Shown here piece by piece: positions 25,900 through 44,931 of a stretch of DNA of 64,000 nt (position 1 is the stretch's first letter; each line of letters starts with the position of its first letter). Location: the IMG/VR virus record IMGVR_UViG_3300037466_001335, positions 1 to 64,000 of that record; one strand, given 5' to 3'. This stretch comes from a virus (lineage: Duplodnaviria > Caudoviricetes). The notes under the pieces are model-generated. The model had not been told where the DNA came from. It saw nothing but the letters and a program-made list of their open reading frames with translations, and did not search any database. The translations under genes were made by a program, and so were the position numbers.

Positions 25900-26329
25900 T
25901 GATCTGTGTTTTAGGCACCCTGTAGACTACTCCAAGCACCCTCTTTCGCGTCGCACAGACAGGCCTACCAGCGCACGCTTGCCATCCTCTGCCCCTCATA
26001 CACCTGCACAATCCCCTCTCCATCGCCGCCTAGGCCCCTTCCTAGCCCTCCTATCCCCATTCTGCGCAGCTTCCCTGTCTCACCATCTCTGACCCCCTCT
26101 ATCGCGCTGTCCTGCTGCTGTCCTGTGCCCTTTCGCCTGGATAGGCGCTGCATATGTGCGTACACACTGTCGAAGACAGGCTTCTCGTAGAGATGACACT
26201 GCTACGGATAGCACTTTGGCAACACATAACCCGTTGGTTATGAATAATGTCTGTCACGGAATACCTCTCGTTGATGACAAGGGTTTTCGGATTTTGAGTC
26301 AGGGACGAGTTTTCGTCAAACACAGATCA
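25900..26329. repeat. 12-bp perfect inverted repeat pair
   Basis: TGATCTGTGTTT at 25900-25911 and AAACACAGATCA at 26318-26329. Confidence 0.8.
26261..26302 (+). repeat. Site A of a dispersed 42-bp direct repeat (partner at 44890-44931)
   Basis: ATACCTCTCGTTGATGACA-N9-GGATT-N5-TCAG. Confidence 0.75.
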
Positions 26330-26439
26330 CAGTCTATAATCTAGACCTAATAGCACATCGGATAGAATAGACGCCACTCTGTCCGCAATTAACTGTTATG
26401 GCACACTATACAGCAACACAAAAGCGCTCGCACAAATGG

Positions 26440-26466
26440 CAAAAGCCACCTATACGGTGGCCTGTT
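26440..26466 (-). terminator. Terminator ending the minus-strand early block
   Basis: GGCCACC-GUAUA-GGUGGCU then UUUG. Confidence 0.7.
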
Positions 26467-26485
26467 TAGTGTTGCTTTGCATTCG

Positions 26486-26683
26486 TCAATCGGCTATATA
26501 AGCTGCATATTCCTCATCGTATGGGTACGGTAGATACACAACACCATACACATAAGCACTCTTATTCAGATTGTTGATTGCCCTAATGTACTGCGGGAGT
26601 GTTGTCTTAGTCATGCTGTATTCTACAGTCTCTGTACCATCACGTAGATTCAAGCACACAATGCGACGATTAATTGATTGCAT
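26486..26683 (-). CDS. Hypothetical protein
   Basis: ORF track; GAGG RBS. Confidence 0.55.
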   Translation of the reverse strand: MQSINRRIVCLNLRDGTETVEYSMTKTTLPQYIRAINNLNKSAYVYGVVYLPYPYDEEYAAYIAD

Positions 26684-26821
26684 CTTCTAACCTCTCTTCT
26701 AAGTCTTGCACAATGTCACTATCCACACACTTACAATCAGGACACATACCAATACTCTTAGCGTGCATGCTCCATAGCGTTGCATCACACTCTTTGCATT
26801 TGTTGCTTACGTAGACGTAGC

Positions 26822-27064
26822 TCATTGCACCACCTCAAACAGTTGATTAATTTGTTCGCACGACAACATGTAGCCTTCATTCAGACGGGCAGTCTTAGCT
26901 CGCATAATCTTGATACCCTTGTCTTGCATATGCTTAGGATTGGTGACGGTGAAGACATCGCCAACTTTAACCTTGCAAGCACGTCCAGGACCTTCAAGCT
27001 TCATGCTGAATTCAACTTTAGCCACCAAGTTAGAGAACTGTTCGAGGATCATTTTTAGCTCCAT
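26822..27064 (-). CDS. Hypothetical protein
   Basis: Start refined to MELKMI. Confidence 0.55.
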   Translation of the reverse strand: MELKMILEQFSNLVAKVEFSMKLEGPGRACKVKVGDVFTVTNPKHMQDKGIKIMRAKTARLNEGYMLSCEQINQLFEVVQ

Positions 27065-27496
27065 GTGTTTGTTTGCATCCGATGTAAGAATCGTAGCAAA
27101 ACCTGACAAGCATTACAAGCACTTTGTTTAGAGTGCTTCCTCTAATTCTTATGTTTCTTATTCGTTAGGCCCTATGGTACAAATAATGAGGCGGCATGTC
27201 TCAATCAATCTATCAAAGCTGACTTATCCATTCCATTCTTAGTATTAGCCTTAATGACATGCTGATTAACATGTATTATGGGTTTCATCTCTTCCCCTCG
27301 TTGACCACATTGTAGCAGACATCCTCATCCCTGGACTAATTTCTAATTCTATTCTGTAGTGGGATTCCTAAATCATTTATCCTTCCACTTCCCCTTGTCC
27401 CTCCAAGCACTCCTCACAACATAGCCTATTGCCACAATAGCAAGAACTCCAACAGGAACAAACACTAGGTATTCGAGGATGTCTTCGTAGGTCATG

Positions 27497-27751
27497 TTAC
27501 AACCCCAATTCTTTCAGCAGTGCATCAGCGTCGAAGTCTTCCACACGAGGCTCACTGTACACTTCGCCATCAAGCATAATCACAGCAGTGGCAACGTCAA
27601 GAAAATTGTAGTGCTGCGGATGCGCTTTAGCCTGCTCAATGTGACGCTTAAGATTCTTGATTTCAGAGAACGTGGCAAGCGGGCTTGCAGTTGCTTTGAA
27701 GAACTCATTACCGCTCTTGTCAGTGATACAGATGTTGTGCCAGTCGTTCAT
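27497..27751 (-). CDS. Hypothetical early protein
   Basis: GGAG RBS; TTGACA upstream at 27817-27822. Confidence 0.65.
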   Translation of the reverse strand: MNDWHNICITDKSGNEFFKATASPLATFSEIKNLKRHIEQAKAHPQHYNFLDVATAVIMLDGEVYSEPRVEDFDADALLKELGL

Positions 27752-28137
27752 GATGTTCTCCTAGTTGATGTGTTTGCTGCTCCAATAGACACATCATCTC
27801 ACACTAGAACTTAGCCTGTCAAGCGTTTTAAGCACTATTCCTCTACTTCCCACTCTTGCACATAATACATAAACCTTTCATCTTCTCTTGTCTCGGTAGC
27901 TTTCTCAGCGCCCTCTTCCGTTAAGTGGATGCTCACAATACCATCACAGCCTTCGTCCATCAGTTTCCGTACAACGTAAACAGTAGCCATATCACTCCCC
28001 TCAAATGTAAACAATCTTCCGTTTCATAACATACAACACATCTTCCCTCTTAATCTCTGGGCTATCCTTTAGCAGCCTCTCTATCGCTTCAAGCTTGCTG
28101 CCAGCACACACAATAGCTTTCTCCCATATGTAGCGCT

Positions 28138-28365
28138 CTAGCCCGATGTTCCATTGCATGTAGTTGACTTCGTACATGGCTGTTGCTCCTCACTGACAAG
28201 CGACTTCACATATCTTTCTAGTTTCTCCCAAGCTTCTTTCTCACGATGCTCGTTTTCGTTACTAACATAACCTGTAACACTGTACAGCATCTCATTACGC
28301 GATTGAACAGACGCATAGCTAGAAGCCAGTACGAGAATCTGTTTAGCTTGCTCTTGTGTAATCAT
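28138..28365 (-). CDS. Hypothetical protein
   Basis: GGAG RBS; in tandem small-gene run. Confidence 0.55.
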   Translation of the reverse strand: MITQEQAKQILVLASSYASVQSRNEMLYSVTGYVSNENEHREKEAWEKLERYVKSLVSEEQQPCTKSTTCNGTSG

Positions 28366-28369
28366 AGCA

Positions 28370-28582
28370 TTACTCCGTACCTATCAGTTCAAGATTTTGT
28401 CTATCTGCAAGATCATGCCTGTATTGATCGAAATCAATCATTACATCATTCTCATCCCTCAACACCCATCTCCCACCCATCTGATTATTGTTCGGTGTAC
28501 GGGAATGGTATTCTCTTTTCATTATCCATCTGTTTGTTGGTGATGCATATACATCTCCTAGCATAATCATTGGTATTTTCAT
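28370..28582 (-). CDS. Hypothetical protein
   Basis: Start refined to MKIPMI; GGRWVLRDENDVMIDFDQYRHDL. Confidence 0.55.
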   Translation of the reverse strand: MKIPMIMLGDVYASPTNRWIMKREYHSRTPNNNQMGGRWVLRDENDVMIDFDQYRHDLADRQNLELIGTE

Positions 28583-28806
28583 TCTTCCCTCTCTTCCGGC
28601 AACAAACAGAAATGTGTAGGCATGAACAAATGGGGCCAACGAATGAAGTCATCAGGACGCATGAACTCGTCAATATCATTCACCCAAACACACCAAGGAT
28701 CGCTTGTATAAACGATCTTACCAAGATGCACATCAAACGCCTTCACAACAAACATTTCGTTGCCCTTGACATATTCTCCAAGCTTGTCAATGCTAATCCA
28801 TTTCAT
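28579..28806 (-). CDS. Hypothetical protein
   Basis: AAGGA RBS; coupled to next gene. Confidence 0.55.
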   Translation of the reverse strand: MKWISIDKLGEYVKGNEMFVVKAFDVHLGKIVYTSDPWCVWVNDIDEFMRPDDFIRWPHLFMPTHFCLLPEEREE

Positions 28807-28816
28807 AGCTATTCCT

Positions 28817-29002
28817 TCACATCAAACTAAGATTGTGCGGATGATATTGCTCAGACTCACCTGTACATAGAGACACAACAACATCAACTCCATTCTTGCT
28901 GTTCAGAGCAAATCCTTCCACATGTCCAATCAATCCCTCGTGAGTTTGTACAACTACACCTTTAGCGAATTGTCCAATATTCTCATCAAAGTAAATGTTC
29001 AT
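28817..29002 (-). CDS. Hypothetical protein
   Basis: GGAGGAG RBS. Confidence 0.55.
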   Translation of the reverse strand: MNIYFDENIGQFAKGVVVQTHEGLIGHVEGFALNSKNGVDVVVSLCTGESEQYHPHNLSLM

Positions 29003-29004
29003 AT

Positions 29005-29394
29005 TTATTTCTCCTCCCCAATCTCAATCATCGGCATTGTATTAGCCTTAGCTTGCCATACAGTAACATTCGTATGCGTATTTAAGGACTCGTCAGACAT
29101 CACAATGAGCAATCCCTTATGACTCCTCAACAGCATACACTCTAAATCATCCTCATGGAAGCATACACGAGAAAGCACACGATTGACAATAGCTCGTCTC
29201 ACCCCATTCTTGCCCATAGCCTGTTCCGTGTAGCACCCTCTGTCATAGCCTAGAATGTTGAGGCAATATGTTGTCTTCAGATGTAGGCCTGAGAGGGGAT
29301 TGGCTTTCTCGTTAGCTTGTGTGGCTTTGACGGAGAGACCCATTAAGGCAAGCATGGAGACACAGGATACGATAAGCTTGATGCCGGAGATCAT
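29005..29394 (-). CDS. Hypothetical protein with predicted signal peptide
   Basis: Hydrophobic N-terminus ending ATQA. Confidence 0.55.
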   Translation of the reverse strand: MISGIKLIVSCVSMLALMGLSVKATQANEKANPLSGLHLKTTYCLNILGYDRGCYTEQAMGKNGVRRAIVNRVLSRVCFHEDDLECMLLRSHKGLLIVMSDESLNTHTNVTVWQAKANTMPMIEIGEEK

Positions 29395-29403
29395 GATTGT
29401 TCC

Positions 29404-29520
29404 TCAGAGAATGCCCGCTTTGTGAAAGTCGTAAGCAATAGCAAACGGGATAGCAATGAACGTAGCAGCCGTTGCAGTGATGAACACAATCCATGCTGCG
29501 GTTTCAAGCTTCTTAAACAT
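29404..29520 (-). CDS. Small membrane protein
   Basis: AAGGAG RBS at MFKKLE; one hydrophobic helix. Confidence 0.55.
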   Translation of the reverse strand: MFKKLETAAWIVFITATAATFIAIPFAIAYDFHKAGIL

Positions 29521-29782
29521 GTTGTTCTCCTTGTGTGTTTGTGCATCCAATGAGTCTATTTTAGGACGATTGCACACAGAATGCAAGAAGATTCTTAAAA
29601 TTTTTATGGTTGATTGCTAGCAAGCTCTTTGATAGCGTCTACAAGCCATGACCAATCACCCTCACCGAATGCAGGGCTAGCCTGCTCCACTAGGTCTGCT
29701 GCGGCCTGTGCAACGCTCTTACGGTATTTCTGCACTTCCTCTCTTGTGTATGTTCTAGTTGATGTATCCATACCTAACTACC

Positions 29783-29971
29783 TCATTTAAAGATGGCTGT
29801 AGTGGCCCACACAATACAACACACAAACAGTGCAGGAATTGCCCTAAACAATCTACCCACATCACTGAACGAGCCAAAACCATTAATAGGCCAAAGCACT
29901 ACCCAAACAAATGCAACAAAAGTAACTAATGTTGGAAACATCCACCAAGTAATATCCAGAGTAATATTCAT
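29783..29971 (-). CDS. Small membrane protein
   Basis: Two hydrophobic helices; GGAGGG RBS. Confidence 0.55.
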   Translation of the reverse strand: MNITLDITWWMFPTLVTFVAFVWVVLWPINGFGSFSDVGRLFRAIPALFVCCIVWATTAIFK

Positions 29972-30036
29972 AACAATGCCCTCCCTTTATATCTGTACGC
30001 ATCTTGAAACATCTTACTAAGCTTTGCAAGCACTAT

Positions 30037-30273
30037 TTACAAATCATCATTCAAGCCTTTTTCTTCAAGGAATACTTCTACTGCAATCTTGTAGTCTCCG
30101 CAATGGTATCCTTCAAGTGTTCCTTCAAAGAAAGCCTCTTTAATCAGTGTGATAGCATCACTCTTAGATACAAGTTCTACTAAATTTGGATGATACCGAA
30201 CATGCAAGGGGATCGCTTTCTCATCTACATAATAACAATTTAAAGCTTTGTTGTACCACATTATAGTATTCAT
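30037..30273 (-). CDS. Hypothetical protein
   Basis: ORF track, tandem run. Confidence 0.5.
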   Translation of the reverse strand: MNTIMWYNKALNCYYVDEKAIPLHVRYHPNLVELVSKSDAITLIKEAFFEGTLEGYHCGDYKIAVEVFLEEKGLNDDL

Positions 30274-30277
30274 AACT

Positions 30278-30514
30278 TTATCTCTGTTTCCGTAAAGAAT
30301 CCATTAACCTAACAATCTGAGAAAGCCTTTCTATCATTACATGATATAACTCATCTACCGCAATATCTTTTGTTGTGCAGTACATATACATGCCTTCTCC
30401 ATTGCTTTTTATGGGGAGCCAAAAGTTTAGCAAAGTGGTGTTGTCTACAAAACCGCCTTCAATCTCGGTTAGCGTAATATTGTCTTTGTCAATCAGCCAA
30501 ATTGTATCATACAT
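30278..30514 (-). CDS. Hypothetical protein
   Basis: ORF track, tandem run. Confidence 0.5.
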   Translation of the reverse strand: MYDTIWLIDKDNITLTEIEGGFVDNTTLLNFWLPIKSNGEGMYMYCTTKDIAVDELYHVMIERLSQIVRLMDSLRKQR

Positions 30515-30584
30515 GATATTGTCCCTTCTTAGCTTTCTTCTCTGCCAAATTCTTTTGCAAACATGTTAGCACAAGCGAAAGCCG

Positions 30585-30932
30585 TTAGGCTTGAGTCTTG
30601 GCTGTCTTGGATGCGAGGTCTTCCCGCAGACATGACAGCATCCAGTCAATCCACTGTAGCCTGTAGCGCTTCATACTGTTAGCATTACGGGATAGTTCTG
30701 GTTGATCCCTCTCCAACCATTGATCAAGATATACATAGTTACCTAATCGCTTGCTGATGTAGTCACGAAGATTGTTTGCTGCTAAGCGGTATTTAGACTC
30801 TTCTGTAAGGTAATAAGACCAATAGATTGCAGCACAAATCCCTCTAAACTCCCCACTCTTAATCTTCTTCCTAGCCCTCTGCAATACTTCAATCTTCGCT
30901 TCGAGCATTTCGATGCTATCTTTCTTAGCCAT
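30585..30932 (-). CDS. Hypothetical protein
   Basis: GGAGG RBS; GICAAI...YRLQWIDWML. Confidence 0.6.
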   Translation of the reverse strand: MAKKDSIEMLEAKIEVLQRARKKIKSGEFRGICAAIYWSYYLTEESKYRLAANNLRDYISKRLGNYVYLDQWLERDQPELSRNANSMKRYRLQWIDWMLSCLREDLASKTAKTQA

Positions 30933-30933
30933 G

Positions 30934-31110
30934 TTAGATTTCCTCCAAAATCATCTCACAAATGTCTTCACACGTTGAAAGCCATGTCATTGCATACTCA
31001 GCTTCATGCAAAGACTTGAATTTATAAGCATGACGGTATTCGACCTGCCAACTCCATCCGGCAAAATCTTGTTCGAAATACTTACCGTCACTGTTTTTGA
31101 TGATATACAT
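30934..31110 (-). CDS. Hypothetical protein
   Basis: Start refined to MYIIKN. Confidence 0.55.
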   Translation of the reverse strand: MYIIKNSDGKYFEQDFAGWSWQVEYRHAYKFKSLHEAEYAMTWLSTCEDICEMILEEI

Positions 31111-31339
31111 AATCAAATCCCCCTCTGTTGAAAACTTAAGAGTTCCGCAAGGAACGAGTAAGACGTTGCGAAGCGGCGTACCTACGTTTAAATGCTTTCC
31201 AGCCTTCCCTCTCGAAAGCCTCCTCATACATTCCCTTCTCCGCTTCCTGGCGCTCTTTATTGCTGCCTAGCATGTCATGAATGAGGATGACGAGGGAGAG
31301 GGACATTAAGATGATGGATGGGAGCATGTTAGATTTCCT

Positions 31340-31564
31340 TTAAATGTCAATGACAATATCATAGTCTCGTTGATCTTCTACTTGCATAATTTCCCAAGGT
31401 TCAAGCTTACGATCACTTACCCATTGCCCGTCAGGGTGTTTCCACATAAGCCATCCAGCAAATCTGCCAATCATACATGCAGCATATTGTTCTTGTCCCG
31501 ACTTGGTTTGCAATAGGACGAAACCCTCAGGCATATTCGTATTCGACAAAATGCACTCCTTCAT
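31340..31564 (-). CDS. Hypothetical protein
   Basis: FAGWLMWKHPDGQWVS motif seen in phage proteins. Confidence 0.6.
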   Translation of the reverse strand: MKECILSNTNMPEGFVLLQTKSGQEQYAACMIGRFAGWLMWKHPDGQWVSDRKLEPWEIMQVEDQRDYDIVIDI

Positions 31565-31854
31565 AATTGTTGAAAATCTCCATCAGTGCATCCCATTTGC
31601 TGTTGGCACTTACAAATTTTGTGATGGAATACTCACATCCTGCGGCACCTTTAGGTTTGCCCATGAAAGTGATTTTATACGTCATCATATCATTCCCCTT
31701 ATTCAGCACAACAAACACAAGCCTTCCAGCCCTCCACCCATTGCACAGCGTTATAGCTTCCTCTCATGTATGGACATTGAGACAGCTTGGCATATCCGTA
31801 GAGATGGGCGTTGTATCCTACATTGTATGCGAGGGACATGGCAGGCTCCTATAG

Positions 31855-32052
31855 TTAAATTTCTACAGCATCCAAACACCAGTCTACATTCTTGAGCATA
31901 TCCCATTTCTTTGTGTACTGTTGCTCATGCTCAATTTGTTTAAGTGCTGTTCCTTTTGCATAGTAACTGTCTGTAGACACTACATCAATGTAAGCAAACA
32001 CTTTGTTTGTGTAGCGTTCTTGCACAAACACTAAATATTGTTTCTTGTTCAT
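31855..32052 (-). CDS. Hypothetical protein
   Basis: ORF track, tandem run. Confidence 0.5.
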   Translation of the reverse strand: MNKKQYLVFVQERYTNKVFAYIDVVSTDSYYAKGTALKQIEHEQQYTKKWDMLKNVDWCLDAVEI

Positions 32053-32160
32053 GGTGTTATTAGTATTTCTTAAAGAGGATGATGTAGATAAGATACCCTA
32101 AAACCACTGCAAGCACAAGATATGTTAGCACGGTTAATGTGTCGTCGTATGACATGTCAC

Positions 32161-32337
32161 TCACTTCCTGTATTTCCTGTTAAACAAGATGTTTTCTATT
32201 GTCTCTTCTGCACTCTTGCCGTATCCGTAGCTGTGTACAACAGTTGAAACATCTTCTATGTCAATAGGTTGTTTTCCTTTTGCTACTAACATAAGGTCTA
32301 CTTTTGTTAAGAAGTAATCGTAATCTTTAGGGTCCAT
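32161..32337 (-). CDS. Hypothetical protein
   Basis: Start refined to MDPKDY. Confidence 0.5.
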   Translation of the reverse strand: MDPKDYDYFLTKVDLMLVAKGKQPIDIEDVSTVVHSYGYGKSAEETIENILFNRKYRK

Positions 32338-32338
32338 A

Positions 32339-32533
32339 TTAAGCTTCCAATTCATCAACAAAGAACTTGCACACAAGAGCCAATACAGCAAAACTTACAG
32401 GCATTGCCAGTGCTGTTCCAACACCAACAGCTTGCACGAACAGTACTCCAGCAAACAGAGAGACGCCACAACCAATAACACTCACCATACATACGAACAT
32501 CAGGACAAGTGTAAGTTTTTCTTTGTTGGTCAT
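32339..32533 (-). CDS. Small membrane protein
   Basis: GGAG RBS; two hydrophobic helices; TTGCAC-17-TAAGAT upstream. Confidence 0.6.
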   Translation of the reverse strand: MTNKEKLTLVLMFVCMVSVIGCGVSLFAGVLFVQAVGVGTALAMPVSFAVLALVCKFFVDELEA

Positions 32534-32865
32534 GTTATGCTCCGTGTTTGTTGATTCGATGTGTGTATCTTACCTAAGCTTTCTAAGTTGTGCAAACATT
32601 TTCTTAAGAATTTTATTGTTGCAGAAATGACAAAACCGCCCGTAGGCGGCGAATGTTGCTAGAACGGCGTCCAGTTCTTATCGTACATTGCAAAGTCTTC
32701 GTCTAGTTGCTTCCAGAACTCTGGACCGTCTTGCAACTCTTTCAGTTGTGCAACTTCTGTGTTGACGTAAGATTGCCACACTTCATAATCGATTTCTTCC
32801 ATATTTCCTCTTAAAAGCAAATAACCGCCTCTAGGACGGTTTCTTGTAATTTGTTTGTTTTGCGC

Positions 32866-33624
32866 TTAAAATGACTCGTTCATGGCACTCATAAAGCTGT
32901 CAAAGTCACACTCTTCCACACTGTCCGAAAAAGTGTAATCTTGCACTATGCACTTTTCTACCTCAGGGAAATTTGGTGCGCACTTTTGCGTATAAGTATT
33001 TATAGAGTGCATAAAGTGCATACCTTCATCTGTGCCAGTGTCAGAGTTACGTTCTTCAAGCATAAGAACAATATCATTCAACCTGTCACAGTGCGTCTCT
33101 ACACCCTCAGGGGTAAGGCCACTACCATACAACAGTTTAATGATGGCGTATCTAATGCTCAGATCATAGGATGAATCCAAGTCTAGTTCGCGTCGAAAGT
33201 AAGACACTTGCTCACTAAGGCTAATCATAACGTTGTCAACTGACGACATTAGCATGTTAAAACTAATCCTTGCGTTCTCAGGTTGCATCCAATACGGTCT
33301 AATAAGTGTGTTTGGTTGCTTCTTAATTGCAGCCTTAAACCGTTTGATTGCTTTTTCTTCCATGTCTTGACTTTCCTTGGTGCCATCTTGTGGATAGATA
33401 GATCGAACAAGATACTTGATTTCTGCTACAGTGATTCCAGTAACAGACTGTGCAATCTTAACCGCTTGTTTGATTGCTTCTTTCTCATCCTTGTTCTTCT
33501 CAACATCTTTAAGATTCTTCTTACACCAGTCTACACTATACCCTGTAGATTCAGCAATTTGTTGGTATGTCTGGCCTGCGGCCCGTAGTTCAATGGCTTG
33601 TTGTTTCTTATCTTGTGGCGTCAT
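32866..33624 (-). CDS. 252-aa protein with N-terminal HTH
   Basis: LRAAGQTYQQIAESTGYSVDW; perfect promoter at 33654-33682; hairpin terminator at about 32820-32845. Confidence 0.7.
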   Translation of the reverse strand: MTPQDKKQQAIELRAAGQTYQQIAESTGYSVDWCKKNLKDVEKNKDEKEAIKQAVKIAQSVTGITVAEIKYLVRSIYPQDGTKESQDMEEKAIKRFKAAIKKQPNTLIRPYWMQPENARISFNMLMSSVDNVMISLSEQVSYFRRELDLDSSYDLSIRYAIIKLLYGSGLTPEGVETHCDRLNDIVLMLEERNSDTGTDEGMHFMHSINTYTQKCAPNFPEVEKCIVQDYTFSDSVEECDFDSFMSAMNESF

Positions 33625-33887
33625 AAATTACCTTACATGATTCAATAAGTGTAATTATACACCTTCTTATTAAGCCTGTCAAGTTTGAGTGTATTTATGC
33701 ACTTTGTTTGGTGCAAGAGCGAAGCGAATACAAGAGACAAGATAAATGCCTCTGTGTGAGGCAATACATTGCATCTGCTAGATGTACCATGCGAGAGACA
33801 GCAAACATATCACACCTACGACACACGCAACAGCTAGCATCGTACAAATAATCTTGATCGCATATTTATAGTTATAGGTAGCCTCCG

Positions 33888-34106
33888 TCATACAGCCTCC
33901 AAAATCTTATATCCTACATCTGACGTTTGAATAGCAAGCCTACAGTTGCGAGTGACATATTGTAAAACTTGCTTCACATGCTCTAAATCATCTGTGAACT
34001 CACAACTTGTGTATCGACCTCCAAGAGATAAATTTACTAACAATGTTTGCTCGTAACTATTTGTGTACAGCAAAGCGTAGAGTTTCTTCACACTACCAAT
34101 CCCCAT
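33888..34106 (-). CDS. Hypothetical protein
   Basis: ORF track. Confidence 0.4.
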   Translation of the reverse strand: MGIGSVKKLYALLYTNSYEQTLLVNLSLGGRYTSCEFTDDLEHVKQVLQYVTRNCRLAIQTSDVGYKILEAV

Positions 34107-34257
34107 TCCCGATGTTAAGATACTGGTCTAAGGCATAACCCCATCCTGATAACCACATATAGTAATCATCTGTGCCGACCGGGTAGGGATTATCTACAGA
34201 CTTCTGCTGAGCATTGTAAGCCTCGTAGCCTTCACTAAATGGTGTTGTCATCGTCGT

Positions 34258-34440: not shown

Positions 34441-34442
34441 GT

Positions 34443-34636: not shown

Positions 34637-34644
34637 TTGTCGCC

Positions 34645-36857: not shown

Positions 36858-36901
36858 TTTAATTTCTCCTATCATCCCGCATTAAACGATTAGATAAAGC
36901 T

Positions 36902-37126
36902 TCATTGCACACCTCGAAGAGAAACCACCTTCAAATGACAGCCCTTACGAGGTACATACGAATACTCCTCCTCAAACATTGGCTCATCTTCCCAATAGTT
37001 TCCCCATCCGTCCATATGCCTGTACTGAACATCTCCTGTTTCTTTGTGGATACGCATCGAGTAGTCCAAATTGTAATACCACTGATCGGCAAATAAATAA
37101 TTGAGGATAGCTTTAATGGTTTTCAT
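36902..37126 (-). CDS. Hypothetical protein
   Basis: GGAGG RBS; promoter at 37156-37184. Confidence 0.6.
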   Translation of the reverse strand: MKTIKAILNYLFADQWYYNLDYSMRIHKETGDVQYRHMDGWGNYWEDEPMFEEEYSYVPRKGCHLKVVSLRGVQ

Positions 37127-37212
37127 GATTGCCTCCGTTGTGTTAATGTAGAGCTAGTGTAGGTGCTTAAAAGGCTTGTGTCAAGCTTTATTTGCACGCT
37201 CGTTAGCGATGT

Positions 37213-37420
37213 TCATTTATCAATCTCCGTCAAAATAAACTCAACCTTGTGCACAGACAGTCGCGGCAGATATTGCCATGCATCATCAACCATGTAGTCT
37301 GTAGCCTCAGCAATACATGAAAACACTTTAGCGCCTAATACAGAATTTGTGAGGAACATGTGGCCGTGATACTCTGCAATATATTCTTCGGTTTGTTTGT
37401 CATACAAAACATAATATGTC
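37213..37420 (-). CDS. Hypothetical protein
   Basis: Coupled small ORF starting MTYYVL. Confidence 0.55.
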
Positions 37421-37637
37421 ATTGCACCTTCTCCCAATTGATAAAATCTGCAGGCTCATCGGAGCACCCTTTCAAGCTTTTCGCAAGAGTAAGAATCAAT
37501 TCTTCTGTAAATTGCACATCAGCAACCGCTGAATCTAGGTCAACAATAAATTCTTTCAGTTGCTCATGCGAGAGTGTGGATAGATTGTCGATTAGCGGCT
37601 CTGTGTCAAGCTCGATTTGTGCGTAAAATGTAGTCAT
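37419..37637 (-). CDS. Hypothetical protein
   Basis: Coupled small ORF. Confidence 0.55.
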   Translation of the reverse strand: MTTFYAQIELDTEPLIDNLSTLSHEQLKEFIVDLDSAVADVQFTEELILTLAKSLKGCSDEPADFINWEKVQ

Positions 37638-37939
37638 TCTTCATTCTCCCTAATGTATTGCCTTACAGCGGCATCTGCACACATGCGAAGCGCAACTGTT
37701 GCAACTCCTTCGTTGCCTTCCACCTTATGTGCAGCACTCCAGATGTTGCATAGTTGCTCGTATGACAAACTACTCTTCGGATATTCCTTTTCTGGCTTGA
37801 TGCGGTATTCTGCGTCTTCATCCCAAGTTGGGGCACTACTGAGTGTGTGCCAAGAACTAAAAGATTCATTCCAATATTGAATCTCTGCCCCATCGGCCCA
37901 GGCGTGGATTAGTGCTGCATGACGGTGTGGTTTCATCAT
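37634..37939 (-). CDS. Conserved hypothetical phage protein
   Basis: MKPHRHAALIHAWADGAEIQ...PTWDEDAEYRIKP. Confidence 0.7.
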   Translation of the reverse strand: MMKPHRHAALIHAWADGAEIQYWNESFSSWHTLSSAPTWDEDAEYRIKPEKEYPKSSLSYEQLCNIWSAAHKVEGNEGVATVALRMCADAAVRQYIRENEE

Positions 37940-38118
37940 TCCTCCGTAGTTAATTCATCAATCATCTTAAACAATTCATCCCTCGCCCTATCACGTTCCG
38001 CTAGAGCCACTTCCAATTGCGATTCTGTCCCTTTCCCTTGATAAAACTGTATCATTGCTGTCACTTCGGAGAAATAGGACATCTTAAGCTTTAGCGTGTG
38101 TGCTTGTTGTTTGTTCAT
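37936..38118 (-). CDS. Hypothetical protein
   Basis: Coupled small ORF. Confidence 0.55.
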   Translation of the reverse strand: MNKQQAHTLKLKMSYFSEVTAMIQFYQGKGTESQLEVALAERDRARDELFKMIDELTTEE

Positions 38119-38309
38119 TAATCCTCCCCTTCTGGCTTAGTCCAAGAAATGATTAGAAAATGATCCTTCCATAATTCTAGCTTGACAATGTTAGGCTCGG
38201 TAGCTTTCAGACGATACAACATTCCCATTTGAGCCGAATCGTTCCCGTAATGTTCATACGGCACAGCATCAGGCGCTTGTGAGCTATACCACCATTTTAG
38301 AGTAAGCAT
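38118..38309 (-). CDS. Hypothetical protein
   Basis: Coupled small ORF. Confidence 0.55.
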   Translation of the reverse strand: MLTLKWWYSSQAPDAVPYEHYGNDSAQMGMLYRLKATEPNIVKLELWKDHFLIISWTKPEGED

Positions 38310-38310
38310 G

Positions 38311-38559
38311 TCATTTCCCCTTCATTCTGACAATCTGCTGAATTATGTCAACAGGAACGTTGTTTTCTAGCAAGCTATTCACAAGCTCTAGCCGCTCGGT
38401 GCATTTCGGCCATTTACGAATCCACAACAAAGGTTTGCTATGCTCACTGTACACACGTGCCACCACTGAGCCATCATCGCGCCGAACAGTGACGTTTGCC
38501 AACTGTTTCTTGGATGAATTACTGCTAAAAACTTTGTAGATACCGTGTTGTTCTGCCAT
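38311..38559 (-). CDS. Hypothetical protein
   Basis: Tandem small ORF. Confidence 0.55.
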   Translation of the reverse strand: MAEQHGIYKVFSSNSSKKQLANVTVRRDDGSVVARVYSEHSKPLLWIRKWPKCTERLELVNSLLENNVPVDIIQQIVRMKGK

Positions 38560-38561
38560 GA

Positions 38562-38807
38562 TTACATCTCCCGCATTGCTGCTTTGATCGTCGTTACGCT
38601 GTATGGTGCGCCGTCCGGTGTATGGGTAATGCCATCAGCTTTCAAGTGCGACAGGACAGCTTTTGCCACATCATCGGCCGTGTATCCTCCACGATGCCGC
38701 GCGGCCATTTTGTAATTGCGTGCGAGACGATACAACCCCTCATCGTTATTGATCCACAGAGATACATTCCAGTGGTTCCAATTTTTATGTCCGTTAAACT
38801 TTGCCAT
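38562..38807 (-). CDS. Conserved early phage protein
   Basis: FNGHKNWNHWNVSLWINNDEGLY...TPDGAPYS; AAGGAG RBS. Confidence 0.7.
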   Translation of the reverse strand: MAKFNGHKNWNHWNVSLWINNDEGLYRLARNYKMAARHRGGYTADDVAKAVLSHLKADGITHTPDGAPYSVTTIKAAMREM

Positions 38808-39081
38808 GATGTTCTCCTTGTTTGTTAGCGCCCTATGCGCCTTCCATGTAGAGCATCTTAGACCAGCACACGAAGCCCGTCAAGCCACCAAAGCACAAAT
38901 AGTTAGAGTGTCGCCTCTAAATTATCTAGTAAAATTCTTGTTGACATATCATCCGTAAGAGTGATATTCTGTGTCCATCAGTTCAAGAGTGGCTTTGCCG
39001 CTAATCCAGAGATTGATTAATCCACCCCTGCGCGATTGGTTTGTGAGCGGGCAAAAAGAAAGCGCCCCGAAGGGCGCATGC

Positions 39082-39495
39082 TCATACATCAAACTCAACT
39101 AACGCAAGGAACCCGCTAGTATCCACTGTAACACCGCTGGGAACGTCGTTTAGCTTGAGGATACCGTCTTTAAAGTGATCCTTGCGAATCCTTGCCAGCA
39201 TGCCTAGGAACAGGTCAGAGTTGGCGTACGATCCATACTTAGCATGTGTGCGGAAAGCATGCATATCGCAATGAGAACGTTTCAACACTGGCACAGAGAT
39301 ATACTCGTAAGCAAGCGTGTCGTCCATGTTGAACATCTGTTGCGGTTTTGCGCGGAAAGAGATTTTAGCCATGTTATCACCTAATACTTGCACTAACTGT
39401 ATATCCGTTGCATTTAGTAATATAGACGTTCCAACCGTCAATACTGATGATGTAATCTCGCCAGTGGCCGTCTTCAGTTTCCCAACGTTTATCAC
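39082..39495 (-). CDS. Hypothetical protein
   Basis: ORF track; GCGCCC-UUCG-GGGCGC terminator follows at 39050-39077. Confidence 0.6.
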   Translation of the reverse strand: MINVGKLKTATGEITSSVLTVGTSILLNATDIQLVQVLGDNMAKISFRAKPQQMFNMDDTLAYEYISVPVLKRSHCDMHAFRTHAKYGSYANSDLFLGMLARIRKDHFKDGILKLNDVPSGVTVDTSGFLALVEFDV

Positions 39496-39578
39496 TTACA
39501 ATCGTACCGTAGCGAAGACAGTGTTTTGCGAAAGCTTCGGGCGGTTGGCTGTACATAAACATAGTAGTGCTCATAGTT

Positions 39579-39785
39579 TCACATCCACATGATAGAAGGT
39601 TGATTACGTCCAGCCGCGCGCGCCATTCGGCAGGCTTTATCAAAATGTTCTAGGCAAGCTTCCTTGGCTTTCTTCGCGTCGTCAAAACGTCCGATCTTTA
39701 CAGGTTTTTGGTCATAGTCGTCTCCGTCATCTTTAATCTTGTGCAGCGATGCAAGGCCGTTTGCGATGTAGTAGCAGTAGATCAT
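39579..39785 (-). CDS. Hypothetical protein
   Basis: Start MIYCYY; TTGACA-17-TAATAT upstream. Confidence 0.55.
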   Translation of the reverse strand: MIYCYYIANGLASLHKIKDDGDDYDQKPVKIGRFDDAKKAKEACLEHFDKACRMARAAGRNQPSIMWM

Positions 39786-40158
39786 TTTGTTACCCCTTCT
39801 CGTTTCGTTGAACATGTAGCCATATTAGAGCATGCAATCTGACGTGTCAAGCACTAAAAGCAAAACAAGCAAATTTCTTAGTGTTTTATGCGCCTCTATA
39901 TAGCATGTCTCTAGGACGCATACATCTAGGATGAACATGTAGCGGTCATACAGCTAAACCCTGGCTATCCGCTGTAGCGATATTCATTATCACGACATTC
40001 ATTATCACGATAAGCATTAAAAACAAAAGCCCGCACAAAGGCGAGCTAACAAGAATTTCCAAATTGTAAATACCCCCCCCGTTAATCCCAAGCCCTAAGC
40101 ATTCCTGGCTCGGCAACGAATTTCTCCTCATAATCGTTTTTACAACTTGAAAATAAAA

Positions 40159-40362
40159 TCATCCCTCCATTTTCACCCTCCTAGCCGCCATCCCTTGAAA
40201 TTCCCAATAGAATGGATCAATCACCATGTGAGTGTTTAGCATCCTAACACGTCCTCTTGATCCGTAATTCTTGAGGACAACATATTCGTCCTCGCAGAAT
40301 TCTATAATGTCTAGCGGCTTGAAACGTTCCTCTTTATTTGTTGTGCCTAACACTTTCCTCAT
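40159..40362 (-). CDS. Hypothetical protein
   Basis: ORF track with RBS. Confidence 0.55.
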   Translation of the reverse strand: MRKVLGTTNKEERFKPLDIIEFCEDEYVVLKNYGSRGRVRMLNTHMVIDPFYWEFQGMAARRVKMEG

Positions 40363-40376
40363 ATTCCCTTCTCCAT

Positions 40377-40586
40377 TTACGGCATGATAAGAAGATAACG
40401 AGCAGCTTGTACGAATGTTCGCATTTCAACTGGCAAGTCCCACTTGTCGTCAAACTGGTATCGCAAGTTAAGATGCTCCATCTGTTGAGGCCAATCCTTA
40501 CCGGCAGATGCTTGGTTGATGTAAGCGTAAAGTTCGTAGCCCTGCACGCTTAGAATTGTAATTTCATCTTTCGATAGTTCGGCCAT
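40377..40586 (-). CDS. Hypothetical protein
   Basis: GGAG RBS; TTGACT-18-TACAAT upstream. Confidence 0.55.
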   Translation of the reverse strand: MAELSKDEITILSVQGYELYAYINQASAGKDWPQQMEHLNLRYQFDDKWDLPVEMRTFVQAARYLLIMP

Positions 40587-40644
40587 CCCACTCTCCTGTG
40601 ATTTTGTTTAGTGTGCACATTGTAGAATGGGAATGGTGTGTTAG

Positions 40645-41037
40645 TCAAGTGTTTGTTTGCTTTAGATTCGATAGCTCGCGCTCAAGCTTGCGGATACGGG
40701 CGGCATACGAAGCGGCGAGCATGCGCAATTCGGCAATCTCGGCATCTTTGAAATAGCCCGTGCCGTGCATCTGCTTCGACGCCTCCGTGTTGTAGTGGTC
40801 CGCCATGCGTTCGGGCCAACGCTTCGGCAGGGTGATATCTGCGATATCTTCCCCAATAGGGGAGGAGACAGGAGCGGTTGTATCCACTGACGTGTCTACT
40901 GTGCGGCGGGCAAATGCACGTTTTCGTGCGCAGGGCCAGACATTACCCACTTCGTCGAAGCAAATGTCGCAAGTCTTTCTACAGGCTTCCTCGTCAAACG
41001 CCGCGCGCTCTGCGTCCATGTTCAGTTCAGTGCTCAT
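40645..41037 (-). CDS. Hypothetical protein, GC-rich
   Basis: DAERAAF and EIAELR motifs typical of betaproteobacterial prophage accessory proteins. Confidence 0.6.
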   Translation of the reverse strand: MSTELNMDAERAAFDEEACRKTCDICFDEVGNVWPCARKRAFARRTVDTSVDTTAPVSSPIGEDIADITLPKRWPERMADHYNTEASKQMHGTGYFKDAEIAELRMLAASYAARIRKLERELSNLKQTNT

Positions 41038-41975
41038 TTCTTCTCCTGTTCCGCGTTGGAGGCGATTGCTGCGTCGATGGCGGCGCGCTTGTTTGCCCCT
41101 TTGCCGGCGATCCGTCCGCGTGCGTCCAGCAGGTAGAATTCCTGGTCGATGATCTCGAAATGAAAACCGCTGATGTTCAGTAGCAGGTCCAGCCGTGCCG
41201 TATCGCGGCTGTCCTTTTCCGCAGATGGGGAAGGAGCGGCGCGGTTAGAATCGATTGCGACGCGCGTATAGTTCAGCAGCGCTGGCATGCCGATAGTGCC
41301 CTGAGTAGCCTTTTGCCAGCTATCGGCATTCCATGTGAAATACGAGTTCGCTAACTCGAACACCTGTTCTCCAGATCGCAAATCGAAAGGCACCGCAGAA
41401 GCAGTCTGTTTGATATGCCTAACACAGGCATCCCAGCCACCTCCCCAATAGTCGAGCGGCTTCCAGCCAACGTGGCTATCGTTCTTAAATCGCTCGTTGA
41501 ACGATTCCTCGATTTGCGCCCGCTCATCCGCCAGAGGTGCGCCCGAAGCTTGTCCGGTAAGCGCGGGAGGTTGGGTGGCGATTGCGTTGTTTGCGAAAAG
41601 CGGGACCGGCGAATGCTTCACGCCGTGTTTATCCATCACGCTGTCTATGTCGCCATCGCTGAAAAGTGCGGCCTCCCATGCAACGGTTCCTTCCAGTTGC
41701 GGAACCAGTTCTGGCGGGCAACTTGTGCGTGCACCTTCAAACGTCAGCAGCTTCGGAACCAGCCATGCATCTGGCTTCTGGCCATCAGCCCCGGCAGCGG
41801 CTGTTCCGTCGCTCCCGCTGGCCTTATTATGCTCCAACACAATCTCACACGCAGCATGTCGAGCGTCACGATGGCCTTCTCTGTATGCGTAGTATTCCTG
41901 TGTAGTGGCAAAGTGTGACAGAGTTTTCTTTGTAGTGATGTTCATAATATCCATGTTCAGCTTGTCGATGTTCAT
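41034..41975 (-). CDS. Mosaic hypothetical protein, GC-rich
   Basis: AT-richer N-terminus joined to GC-rich segments (APLADERAQ, RDTARLDLL). Confidence 0.6.
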   Translation of the reverse strand: MNIDKLNMDIMNITTKKTLSHFATTQEYYAYREGHRDARHAACEIVLEHNKASGSDGTAAAGADGQKPDAWLVPKLLTFEGARTSCPPELVPQLEGTVAWEAALFSDGDIDSVMDKHGVKHSPVPLFANNAIATQPPALTGQASGAPLADERAQIEESFNERFKNDSHVGWKPLDYWGGGWDACVRHIKQTASAVPFDLRSGEQVFELANSYFTWNADSWQKATQGTIGMPALLNYTRVAIDSNRAAPSPSAEKDSRDTARLDLLLNISGFHFEIIDQEFYLLDARGRIAGKGANKRAAIDAAIASNAEQEKK

Positions 41976-41976
41976 T

Positions 41977-43002
41977 TCACTCTCCACCATTCAGAAGATA
42001 CGAATTGCTCACAGCTTTGAACGAATACTCGGGATTGCTCAGGCTCTTGAACACAACACCTTCTGCAATCTTGTTGTTGATGCTAGGACGTTCAGCGTAC
42101 GCAAGGAAATCTTGCACAGATTTGAAAGCTGAAAGGTCGTCGTAGTCAATCACAGGAGTATGTTGCAACTCAAGTCGTTTGCAGACGGCATGTCGCACTT
42201 CTGCACCAAGATAGCGTTGTTCGTCAATATCAAAGATGTCAAACACACTAAACTCATGGTGCGCGATACCTTCCCAATTGCCATTGATACCACTACCCCA
42301 CAATTCGCCCTGAATGGCGATGTTTTTACCGTACGCACGAAGCTTTTCTTCTAAGCCAAGTTCAACAGCTTTCTTGATGAAGGCGTTGTCTTTGTTCTCA
42401 TCATTAATCTTCAGTTCCAGGTTACGAGAGCATACACCAAAGTCACCGTTGTTGTAAAAGACCGTCATGCTGCTGCCGTCAATCTTAAGTGTCACTTCGT
42501 ACACATCGTCCAAATGCTCTTGCGTGAAACTCTTGAACACGTTCTGGATGCGCTCTTGATCAGTCTTGCGGAGGAACGAAGGGAAGTATCCCTTGGCTTG
42601 CCCTGCAAGCTGGGGAGACAGGGGGCGCTCCCATTTTTGGATGTTGAGGGCTGCGCTAACGTCTTGGCCGACTACATCCGTATTGGTGGTGGGCGGAAGC
42701 TCGTAGACTACGCTCAGCGGAAGAATCAACCCTTGGCTAAGTTCTCCACGAAGTTTGATCGAACGAAGCCTCTCACCCTTCACACCATTGTATTCGCGAG
42801 GCTCTTTACCTTTCGACAGGAATGGGGCAACTTCGTTAGGAATCCACGAATCGATTTCGCAGAAAACCACGGTCTCCCCTGTTTTATATTGCCCTTTTTC
42901 AACTACGCATTGCCAGCCACCGATTTTCGCAAGCTCAAGTTTTTCAGCGTTGTTGTGAGGGTGTACCAAATCAATTGTTTGAATAGTCGCCATCTGACGC
43001 AT
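41977..43002 (-). CDS. RNA ligase, Rnl2/DRB0094 family
   Basis: N-terminal IDLVHPHNNAEKLELAKIGGWQCVV domain; KIDG, QGELWG, FSVFDI, EGVVFK, FKAVS nucleotidyltransferase motifs. Confidence 0.9.
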   Translation of the reverse strand: MRQMATIQTIDLVHPHNNAEKLELAKIGGWQCVVEKGQYKTGETVVFCEIDSWIPNEVAPFLSKGKEPREYNGVKGERLRSIKLRGELSQGLILPLSVVYELPPTTNTDVVGQDVSAALNIQKWERPLSPQLAGQAKGYFPSFLRKTDQERIQNVFKSFTQEHLDDVYEVTLKIDGSSMTVFYNNGDFGVCSRNLELKINDENKDNAFIKKAVELGLEEKLRAYGKNIAIQGELWGSGINGNWEGIAHHEFSVFDIFDIDEQRYLGAEVRHAVCKRLELQHTPVIDYDDLSAFKSVQDFLAYAERPSINNKIAEGVVFKSLSNPEYSFKAVSNSYLLNGGE

Positions 43003-43378
43003 TTAAATATCTCCTAGCTTTATCTAAAATATAAGGGTTGTCGTTAAACATACCAAGGCCTTTGTTGCAAGCATTGCACAACAAACCTCTCACCTTGTTT
43101 GTCTTATGACAATGATCTACTGCCACAACATCCAGAGGTTGCCCCCGCTTTTTTAACGGCATTCTCATATCTATGCCGCAAATACCGCACTTCCCACACT
43201 GCGCAATCCACCAAGCTTCAAATTCTTCCAGTGTAATGCCATATTTCTTTTGGAGTTGCCAGTCTCTTGCGTAATGTGCCCGATCTGTGGAGTTGTTTGC
43301 AACCTTACATGCGGCACATCGCGTGTACTCAATACGAGTTACAAAATTTTCACAGTCCAAACACTTCTTTTTAGACAC
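42971..43378 (-). CDS. Endonuclease VII-like (His-Me finger) endonuclease
   Basis: YGITLEE...QCGKCGICG...VDHCHKTNKVRGLLCNACNKGLG. Confidence 0.85.
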   Translation of the reverse strand: MSKKKCLDCENFVTRIEYTRCAACKVANNSTDRAHYARDWQLQKKYGITLEEFEAWWIAQCGKCGICGIDMRMPLKKRGQPLDVVAVDHCHKTNKVRGLLCNACNKGLGMFNDNPYILDKARRYLNASDGDYSNN

Positions 43379-43474
43379 TCTGCGTTTTTCTTTTCTCAAG
43401 TTCTTCCTTAAGTTTGTTAAGATGGTCGTATCTTATAGTAAGAATCTTATACTTGTCAAGAACTTTTCGCACAA

Positions 43475-43498
43475 AAGAAAAAGCCCTCCGAAGAGGGC
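43475..43498 (-). terminator. Rho-independent terminator
   Basis: GCCCUC-UUCG-GAGGGC then UUUUCUUUU. Confidence 0.8.
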
Positions 43499-43537
43499 AA
43501 AGTGCTTCACGAGGGAGGGTTGTCTCTGGCGAAACTG

Positions 43538-44200
43538 TTACATAACACCTTGCAGCAGTTTGGCAAGCTTCAGGGCGAATTCCATCATTTTCTCGTCCAC
43601 CTCAGCTTGCGACACGCCCGGACCCGGCACAACAGGCTGCATCAACGTGGGCGACTCCGCAGCCACTTGGCCCAACTCGGACAGATAGCGTTTCATTGCT
43701 GCCTCGCTGCGCTTGTTCGATTTCTTGTTGTAGGCACGCTTCGTCTTGGCCTTCTCTTCAGCCGAACGAACCACCTTTGCACCTTCCGGGTTGTTTGCTG
43801 TCGCAACACCTTTCTGCTCAGGCTTCTTTGTTTCCTTGTCGTGCATCTCCTGCGCAAGCTGTTGCAGCGTTTCCGGTTCGTCCTTCTTTTCCTCATCTTT
43901 CTTGACAAGCACAAGGTTGGCATCGTTAAGCTTGCGAGGCAAAGCCTTCGTCTTCGGAAAGCGTTGACGCACAAGGATGTCATGCTCCGGAATGTTGGCA
44001 TGCTTGGCATACGCACGAGCCACTTGCAGAGCCTGCTCAGGGTTGAGATGTTCCGTGTGCATGTAAAAATCGTAGCCTACTTCCACGTCCTTGCCGTCCA
44101 TGTAGGCTTTGAGACGACCGTTGCCACTTTCTTTCGACTCCACGTCAAAGATGACAGGGGTGTTCGTCAGGGGATAGATTCGTGCGATAACTTGTTTCAT
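43538..44200 (-). CDS. Hypothetical early protein with highly expressed codon usage
   Basis: GGAG RBS; own promoter (TTGACA-17-TAAGAT, about 44325-44352) and terminator. Confidence 0.7.
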   Translation of the reverse strand: MKQVIARIYPLTNTPVIFDVESKESGNGRLKAYMDGKDVEVGYDFYMHTEHLNPEQALQVARAYAKHANIPEHDILVRQRFPKTKALPRKLNDANLVLVKKDEEKKDEPETLQQLAQEMHDKETKKPEQKGVATANNPEGAKVVRSAEEKAKTKRAYNKKSNKRSEAAMKRYLSELGQVAAESPTLMQPVVPGPGVSQAEVDEKMMEFALKLAKLLQGVM

Positions 44201-44430
44201 GATGATGTTGCTCCTATATAGTGTTTGCGTGTATTTAGTTAAGTAGTGCTACTTATGAATTTGTCAGCTTCGACAGCTTTGCTTCTTCTTTGGCATCGCT
44301 GTGTTGCGCTGTCGATGAAGTGCATCTTATCTAATGGTGTTGTACCTGTCAAGCGTGTTAGGTCAAAAACTACAAATATTTCTTGATGTTTGCTGTCGAG
44401 CATGCTAGGAAGTGAAAATTCACAGCCAGC

Positions 44431-44446
44431 CTGTATGCATAAACAG
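44431..44446. promoter_or_regulatory. LexA (SOS) box candidate
   Basis: CTGTATGCATAAACAG matches CTGT-N8-ACAG. Confidence 0.55.
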
Positions 44447-44889
44447 TGGTAGTGTCAGCAAAGTCCTACGTAAATACTCGGGTATGTGAGAATCGCGTGA
44501 TAATTTCCTTGTGCTGAGCATGTTCAAGGTCTATATTGAACACAAGACGAGTGTAATTCTTGCGCTATCTATCTTCTGTACGGCGCTTAACGTTACATTG
44601 TTAGTGAGTGACCTATCAGAATTGATAGGGTGTGCCCTGTAGGGTGAGAGTAGGATGAACACTAGAGATAGTTTTTGAACCGTGTAACTTACGGGTAGGG
44701 CCATCTATCGTCTTTTGAAAAGCAACCGCTATGGATTAGTGGGTAGGGAGAGGTACATTCTGAATTTGCAGCCCTGGAGGTTGCACGGGAGAGATGCGCC
44801 TAGAGGGATGTGAAAGGAATACAGAAGGGCGTGTTGCTGGAGGAGAGTTGGAATAAAGTGTAGAAGAGAATTTAGAGGGGATGCCCAAG

Positions 44890-44931
44890 ATACCCCTCGT
44901 TGATGACATTATGTGCTGGATTCTAGCTCAG
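44890..44931 (+). repeat. Site B of the dispersed 42-bp direct repeat (partner at 26261-26302)
   Basis: ATACCCCTCGTTGATGACA-N9-GGATT-N5-TCAG. Confidence 0.75.

Follow-up and report, generated by a model that had tools for sequence, protein, structure and literature searches.

Related early-region elements in phages

The tailed phage studied here (Duplodnaviria; Caudoviricetes; IMG/VR record IMGVR_UViG_3300037466_001335) carries a conserved non-coding element at several places in and beside its block of early genes. The 64,000-nt stretch that was analyzed, hereafter the window, makes up the opening 64 kb of one contig of 80,925 bp. An earlier note on this sequence had singled out two sites, A (starting at 26261) and B (starting at 44890), as a pair at both ends of the block, and had proposed that they serve to excise or resolve it, act as packaging signals bounding a long terminal repeat, or are operators for one protein. 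Both sites belong to a larger family of non-coding elements whose geometry is fixed. Judging from its sequence and its placement just after early genes, the conserved element probably controls transcription, and excision or packaging of the early block is probably not its role.

In phage lambda, the pO promoter, a 77-nt antisense RNA and a terminator form the single-copy OOP unit, to which sar of phage P22 is comparable. These tiny units of promoter, hairpin and U-run are transcribed in opposition to an early operon and overlap an early gene at its 3' end; judged by sequence, site A is arranged in exactly this way. The difference is that the present genomes hold three or four paralogues with a shared core, among which only the A-type copy has a recognizable promoter. 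Lambda nut sites (boxA plus a 15-nt boxB hairpin) and HK022 put sites (two stem-loops) offer another parallel, since nutR and putR, like the element, are conserved signals placed right after an early stop codon and before a terminator and occur in several copies per genome, and they act at the RNA level, as the element may. However, no such conserved structure was found here, and copy A lies after its terminator. The RNase III sites of the T7 early region are stable conserved hairpins on the sense strand. The element resembles them as a conserved intergenic sequence of about 55 nt, present several times per early region in one orientation, but its fold energies are no better than those of shuffled sequences on either strand.

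DNA invertases act on two inverted sites that enclose a small invertible segment adjoining the invertase gene, and res is one three-part site beside its gene. The element recalls hix, gix, cix and res in its length of about 26 bp, in a central dinucleotide flanked by CC/GG, in partial dyad symmetry (up to 7/12 in B-type copies) and in having a serine recombinase gene nearby. It differs from them in occurring as three or four direct copies over 18 kb, in not covarying with the recombinase and in that no rearrangement was seen; its left half also has no A-tract.

Composite promoter-terminator motifs, named PeSL and PmSL, have been described in T4-like phages (PMC2839356, PMC4122927). A PeSL consists of a stem-loop followed by a sigma-70 early promoter, a Shine-Dalgarno (SD) sequence and a start codon, and is found upstream of nearly every small open reading frame (ORF) (PMC2839356, PMC4122927). 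The present element resembles PeSLs as a short conserved regulatory motif in one orientation in a variable early ('hyperplastic') region, with copies that recombine and adjoin insertions and deletions. In contrast to PeSLs, it lies 3' of genes and opposed to them, has no consistent promoter and only three or four copies, and its long conserved core is unlike any promoter box. A promoter-terminator cassette of the PeSL type was ruled out, because the copies at B and at a third site, M (40072), have no consistent promoter and the element is 3' of and antisense to genes. The truer counterpart of PeSLs here is the set of many TTGACA promoters with hairpins in the window. On the minus strand between 26486 and 45674, about 12 near-consensus TTGACA-17-TAnnAT promoters and several hairpin terminators were found (examples at 45674, 44352, 43459, 39850, 35297 and 33682), a PeSL-like arrangement in which the early region is divided into many short transcription units.

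Sites A and B are conserved in relatives

The 19-mer reported at both sites was recovered on the + strand at 26261-26279 and 44890-44908, with 18 of 19 positions identical and a single T/C difference. The GGATT and TCAG blocks that follow have identical spacing at A and B, giving 29/42 identity over the longer pattern. The description of the surrounding regions (25610-26485, 876 bp, and 44222-44964, 743 bp) as the two largest non-coding gaps was roughly right, other long ORF-poor stretches being occupied by tRNAs or small ORFs. Taken by itself the A/B pair is borderline, and the caution that an 18/19 match alone could arise by chance was justified: by our estimate, about 0.7 such repeats per orientation are expected in 81 kb. 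In blastn comparisons the 19-mer was the sole match of one gap to the other (E-value 0.005; gap against genome, 0.04), and no third copy within four mismatches was found in the whole genome. The genome also contains an unrelated perfect 19-nt inverted repeat (37933-37951 and 58676-58694) spanning ribosome-binding regions, so that 19-nt repeats in it need outside evidence. A weaker 14/19 match on the minus strand at 16757-16775 does exist, against the B variant, but 20 positions in the genome reach at least 13/19, and we attribute it to chance. A metagenome scan with the 19-mer, for relatives and for A/B junctions, returned seven unrelated matches and no junction sequences.

Relatives were found through the recombinase and the first early protein (gene at 43538-44200), which led to IMG/VR contigs of 46-93 kb. 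The copy census covers eleven genomes, namely ten whole relatives of 64-93 kb (G001-G010) and the window genome (G000), together with a few fragments. At least seven related contigs of 64-93 kb carry copies at the same three or four syntenic places. Because the element is conserved at collinear positions in relatives, a chance origin of the A/B pair was rejected. The motif is thus neither absent from relatives nor randomly placed in them, and the inference that it is functional is supported, but not the idea of a unique pair bracketing the block. Mapped against homologues of window genes, three orthologous loci are common to G000, G001, G005, G007 and G010; the correspondence is partial in G003 and G006 and looser in G002. 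Site A of the relatives lies about 600 bp downstream of the recombinase gene, in surrounding DNA that can hardly be aligned, and site B is collinear, between the first early gene and a kinase-like gene. No copy was found in three more distant relatives (G004, G008 and G009), yet G004 and G009 have kept the recombinase (62% identity) and the same gap layout.

The element is retained where the terminase, the primase/helicase and the recombinase have been swapped or have diverged. Identity to the window protein is 37-57% for the large terminase in most relatives (92% in G010 alone), 22-27% for the primase/helicase and 32-95% for the recombinase; for the first early protein it is 75-88% in most, with 47% in G003 and 33% in G002. 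A search for a partner protein by presence/absence profiling was not informative: eleven small proteins track the element, but the genomes that lack it are simply more distant, and Pfam gave nothing.

Copies and their placement

A weight matrix built from the A and B sites identified further copies, all on the + strand. The window genome has four, starting at 26261 (A), 27291 (weak), 40072 (M) and 44890 (B). The two extra copies, at 40072-40127 and 27291-27346, had been overlooked in the earlier note and were confirmed by reading the sequence directly. A unique pair bracketing the early block is therefore not what the genomes contain, as each has three or four copies in the same orientation, some of them inside the block.

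All copies are on the + strand and outside ORFs. Each runs antisense to the early genes and directly follows the 3' end of a gene on the minus strand. Copy A (26261-26316) comprises the core (26261-26286), a GATT box, a CGAG box and a T-run (26310-26313). It follows the recombinase gene (24944-25609, + strand, 221 amino acids), which ends 652 bp before A, close to the 650 bp first noted, and lies just past the terminator that ends the early block. Orthologues after the recombinase gene were found in G001, G003, G005, G007 and G010 and in L003, L030 and L036. Copy M (40072-40161 with its right flank, which reaches the stop codon of the gene at 40159-40362) directly follows, on the 3' side, the homologues of 40159-40362 and 40377-40586, and a strong terminator of the minus strand lies 25 nt further on; copy M has orthologues in G001, G005, G006, G007 and G010 and a degenerate one in G003. 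Copy B (44890-44967) has its core at 44890-44915 and a degenerate T-run near 44939. It is directly 3' of the nucleotide-kinase-like gene (44965-45612, minus strand), whose stop codon it reaches, and has orthologues in G001, G003, G005, G006, G007 and G010 and in L100 and L103. The weak fourth copy (27291-27378 with flank) has a degenerate core, TTTCT at the fixed distance and the conserved right flank ATTCCTAAATCA. This fourth locus is common to G000 and G010, 1.0-1.5 kb to the right of A (1.5 kb in G010).

Anatomy of the element

The element opens with a C-rich core of 26 nt, in which CCTCGTTGAT and CCCAAGGG are found. Some 20 variable nt separate this core from a CAACGA box, its inverted repeat, and a T-run follows, which in most copies starts at a fixed 49-50 nt from the element start. 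The consensus of the 45 nt before the T-run (27 copies) is conserved along most of its length and includes the GGATT and TCAG blocks. In B- and M-type copies, conservation extends into a flank of about 35 nt that ends in ATTCCAAAATCA. Newly detected copies resemble the founders beyond the matrix, in the position of the T-run and, for the inner and right-hand copies, in the flank. TCGTT in the core and the CAACGA box before the T-run are inverted repeats, complementary in 16-23 of the 27 copies. A protein-coding repeat was considered, as a minus-strand frame (..NS..SQ..LGINE..) seemed conserved, and was rejected: stop codons interrupt the frame in at least five copies, and the copies share no start.

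Predicted transcription signals at the copies

We favor, with a rough probability of 0.38, the reading of the element as a transcription-boundary signal read on the + strand, which at A would form a small OOP-like antisense RNA unit. This reading is suggested by the placement at the 3' ends of early units, the single antisense orientation, the T-run, the complementarity of core and 3' box and the promoter at A. A hairpin formed by the core and the 3' box and followed by a U-run would stop RNA polymerase running antisense into the early operon from its 3' end. At A, a sigma-70-type promoter about 15 nt upstream would make the unit self-contained, and its product would be an antisense RNA of roughly 60 nt, as with lambda OOP. 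The shared core would permit sequence exchange between copies. By sequence, the full set of OOP-type features (promoter, hairpin and T-run) is found in A-type copies only, B- and M-type copies having no promoter.

The promoter-like sequence upstream of A, P1 (TTGGCA-17-TATGAA, 26218-26246, + strand), ends 14 nt (26247-26260) before the copy. Equivalents occur in every A-type copy at a matching relative position, represented by three sequence versions with P-values of 0.03-0.06 each; the distance to the element is about 15 nt (16-18 as listed by our script, 14 by coordinates in the window). Another promoter-like sequence, P2 (TCGTCA-16-TATAAT, 26313-26340, + strand), stands directly after the T-run of copy A, and its -35 and -10 boxes are kept in relatives. 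At B, relatives have an independent + strand terminator (hairpin plus T-run) about 70 nt upstream of the copy, with stem and loop varying between genomes, which implies that + strand transcription does run towards copy B.

Hairpins of A-type copies have predicted energies of -5 to -13 kcal/mol and are followed by the T-run. When the 3' half was shuffled, 95% of the shuffled versions folded less well than the real sequence for five of 19 copies, where about one is expected. Next to the T-run, predicted hairpins also exceed in stability those preceding 1,200 random T-runs from the same genomes (-8.95 versus -5.25 kcal/mol, P = 7.5e-6). G-U pairs in several copies (L003 and copies of G003 and G006) fit only an RNA of the + strand; counting wobble pairs to assign a strand gave no clear strand.

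A number of observations weigh against this reading. The comparison with random T-runs is confounded by the G+C content of the core. Overall hairpin stability did not exceed that of composition-matched shuffles, the mean fold z-score against shuffles was about -0.5 with the two strands alike, and a terminator consensus scan did not flag the element hairpins. RNAalifold returned an empty consensus structure on both strands, and no compensatory changes were found, both arms of the sole recurrent helix being conserved in sequence. An Rfam search gave no match at the gathering score, only noise at E-values up to 5. B- and M-type copies have no consistent promoter on the + strand, nor on the minus strand, many of them have AA between hairpin and T-run, and copy B of the window has a poor T-run. 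A simple terminator also leaves unexplained the strict conservation of the core, the fixed length and the flank of B- and M-type copies past the T-run.

Alternative explanations

Read instead on the minus strand, the element could be a weak promoter and its conserved 5' leader or a small RNA from a 3' untranslated region; the core, which is G-rich on this strand and includes an SD-like GAGGGG, would then act as a seed or bind a protein. It could also be a nut/put-like antitermination signal before terminators. The copies do follow stop codons at a near-fixed distance and are, read in this direction, co-oriented with the genes. Past copy M, at 25 nt, there is the strong minus-strand terminator (40028-40047), which has different hairpin sequences at the same place in relatives, and in G005 the upstream gene is terminated before the element, so that a new transcript may start there. 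A -10-like nAnAAT stands at a fixed place after a 17-nt variable spacer, the conserved A/T-rich flank would lie upstream in the manner of an UP element, and a promoter-like site within copy A (TTGACG-17-CAAAAT, 26291-26319, minus strand) scores well in G000 (P = 0.004) and G005 (P = 0.01). In other relatives, however, this site has a poor -10, and neither B- and M-type copies nor most A-type copies have a consistent sigma-70 promoter, the -10 being without the key A or T. A general sigma-70 promoter on either strand was accordingly rejected, the only instances being P1 of A-type copies (+ strand) and copy A of G000 and G005 (minus strand). A new promoter class was rejected as well, as its TTGGAAT box was not found elsewhere in the genome, and so was the use of the core by a phage RNA polymerase, none being present among the large proteins. 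Copy A, moreover, is past the block terminator (hairpin at 26445-26461, with equivalents in relatives) and has no gene downstream, and conserved RNA structure was not found. We regard a minus-strand function as the main rival, though less probable than the + strand reading. A further possibility, which seems unlikely, is that a single phage protein binds the copies as DNA sites, as in the earlier operator proposal; at its strongest, this reading makes them crossover or accessory sites for the neighboring serine recombinase. Such a protein would account for the conservation of sequence and not structure, for the fixed length and for a weak dyad symmetry around AA, which has CCC/GGG on either side; this symmetry averages 4.9/12, compared with about 2.9 for other centers. 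B-type copies in relatives reach 7/12, and 7/12 symmetry about such a center is gix-like; the right half of site A in the window presumably also resembles a gix half-site. The recombinase gene is 652 bp from A, paralogues exchange sequence, and same-orientation copies could delete or shuffle early-gene segments as circles. This recombinase-site form is nevertheless unlikely, because the element does not track the recombinase and no rearrangements were seen: it is kept beside recombinases of only 32-43% identity (G005, G007 and G010), it is absent from G004 and G009 despite their 62%-identical recombinase and the same gap layout, and no inversion, deletion or reordering between copies was observed in eight genomes, where the order A/M/B and the orientation are constant. 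The proposed excision or resolution of the early block is unlikely on the same grounds. Dyad symmetry is low in A-type copies (mostly 4-5/12, range 2-6; 4/12 for A and 3/12 for B of the window), A and B of the window differ right after the 19-mer, at the putative central dinucleotide (AA versus AT), and the metagenome scan found no junctions. Programmed excision or exchange of the segments A-M, M-B and A-B as circles during infection, by the serine recombinase or by the neighboring HNH protein, which shares a DNA-binding domain with it, is decidedly improbable; if true, it would amount to an integron-like cassette system in a lytic phage.

The copies might also be passive linkers, with no recombination enzyme of their own, at which homologous recombination swaps early modules between co-infecting relatives, as has been proposed for PeSLs. 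The early block is indeed the most variable part of the syntenic relatives, and the genes between copies are not the same in all of them; in G006 and in the 45-kb contig behind L006/L100 the assembly breaks at a copy or close beside it, and paralogues are homogenized; PeSLs provide a precedent that includes mini-circle excision (PMC4122927). Against this stand the small number of copies (three or four for about 60 genes) and the core, which at 26 nt is short for efficient homologous exchange; selection for exchange alone, furthermore, would not preserve fixed geometry and one orientation. We consider a linker role quite unlikely as an explanation, but it can coexist with a regulatory role on either strand. 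Lastly, A and B could be genome ends or boundaries of a long terminal repeat, recognized or cut by the terminase, given that both lie in large non-coding gaps flanking small early genes, as in long repeats of the T5 type. The claim of paired packaging signals is very unlikely, almost to the point of being negligible, because the element does not travel with the terminase and there are copies inside the block: element positions are unchanged in relatives whose large terminase is mostly 37-57% identical (92% in G010 only). Four genomes (G001, G004, G008 and G009) are plain circles, closed through assembly overlaps of 120-127 nt, and none of these has a contig end at A or B.

Exchange between copies

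Orthologues of B read GATCCCA after the core TTGAT region, whereas A copies read GATGACA or GATGCCC. Copy B of the window has the A-type GATGACA and then continues as B-type. In G006, copies M and B are identical over at least 55 nt, and the contig ends within that stretch. Together, the A-type GATGACA in B of G000 and the identical M and B of G006 indicate occasional homogenization of paralogous copies. Local gene conversion, superimposed on an old paralogy, would account for the 18/19 match between A and B of the window.

The contig behind L006/L100 (IMG/VR contig 3300037418_001003, 45,394 nt) has a B-type copy 294 nt from its beginning, and its end lies 79 nt past the point where an A-type copy on the same strand starts. 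On either side, then, its assembly seems to have halted at the borders of the variable early block.

Genomic context

Annotation of the window proteins gave the gene content of a tailed phage, and the group consists of uncultured, mosaic, myovirus-like phages. The assembly is circular, as the contig was opened inside a gene. Structural genes occupy 1-16418 on the minus strand, with the large terminase at 14826-16418, followed by three tRNAs (16995-17535) and a + strand block with a methyltransferase, the HNH protein and the serine recombinase (17.9-25.6 kb). The early block (26486-44200, minus strand) comprises about 60 small genes, among them one for an RNA ligase, and contains numerous sigma-70 promoters close to consensus as well as hairpin terminators; a + strand replication block with primase/helicase, DNA polymerase and ribonucleotide reductase begins at 45782. 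GC skew was rejected as a marker of the origin, since it merely follows gene orientation. A phage database search found no close cultured phage, the top protein identities being 37% for the terminase and 52% for the polymerase. Comparison of G001-G010 with the window revealed extreme mosaicism, with adjacent genes ranging from more than 90% to less than 40% identity within one genome pair; terminase, portal, primase/helicase and recombinase have each been swapped independently among the relatives.

Several other features were found close to the copies. Right after the recombinase stop codon and before a terminator, two exact copies of TATCGTGTTGT stand 33 bp apart (25639-25682) and may be binding sites for the recombinase or the HNH protein. 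Just past the copy M terminator, the perfect palindrome TTATCGTGATAA (12 bp) is accompanied, at a distance of 15 bp, by a partial repeat of itself (39987-40013); equivalent palindromes occur in G001, G005, G006 and G007, and they have the look of operators. Just upstream of copy M, three relatives (G001, G005 and G007, in the last at about 29250-29380 in oriented coordinates) have a gene for a peptide of about 41 amino acids with one hydrophobic helix and a charged tail, a small membrane protein as in type I toxin or holin-like genes.

In gap A, the tract 25930-26140 is C-rich and G-poor on the + strand, and gap B is rich in C/U on its minus strand. Incoming transcription would copy the C-rich strand in both gaps, as expected of Rho-utilization sites. 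Gap B also holds a conserved stretch that is purine-rich on the + strand (44400-44885), with blocks kept in four genomes, namely the 9-mer GTAGGATGA and a 7-bp hairpin at about 44611-44629. With a + strand terminator of its own in relatives, this stretch is a candidate non-coding RNA of about 300 nt. Its GGA density (2.4 per 100 nt, versus 1.3 genome-wide) recalls Csr/Rsm sponge RNAs, which we mention as a lead only.

Implications

What appeared to be a repeat bracketing the early block is a multi-copy, probably regulatory family, and models that need a unique pair, such as block excision or a terminal repeat, should not be advanced without read-level evidence. If a regulated stop or an antisense RNA does operate at the 3' end of each early operon, the element would show how a large uncultured phage group insulates or shuts off its early genes, and it would serve as a sequence tag for early-region boundaries in metagenomic contigs. 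The shared core is also a plausible route for shuffling early, host-takeover genes between relatives.

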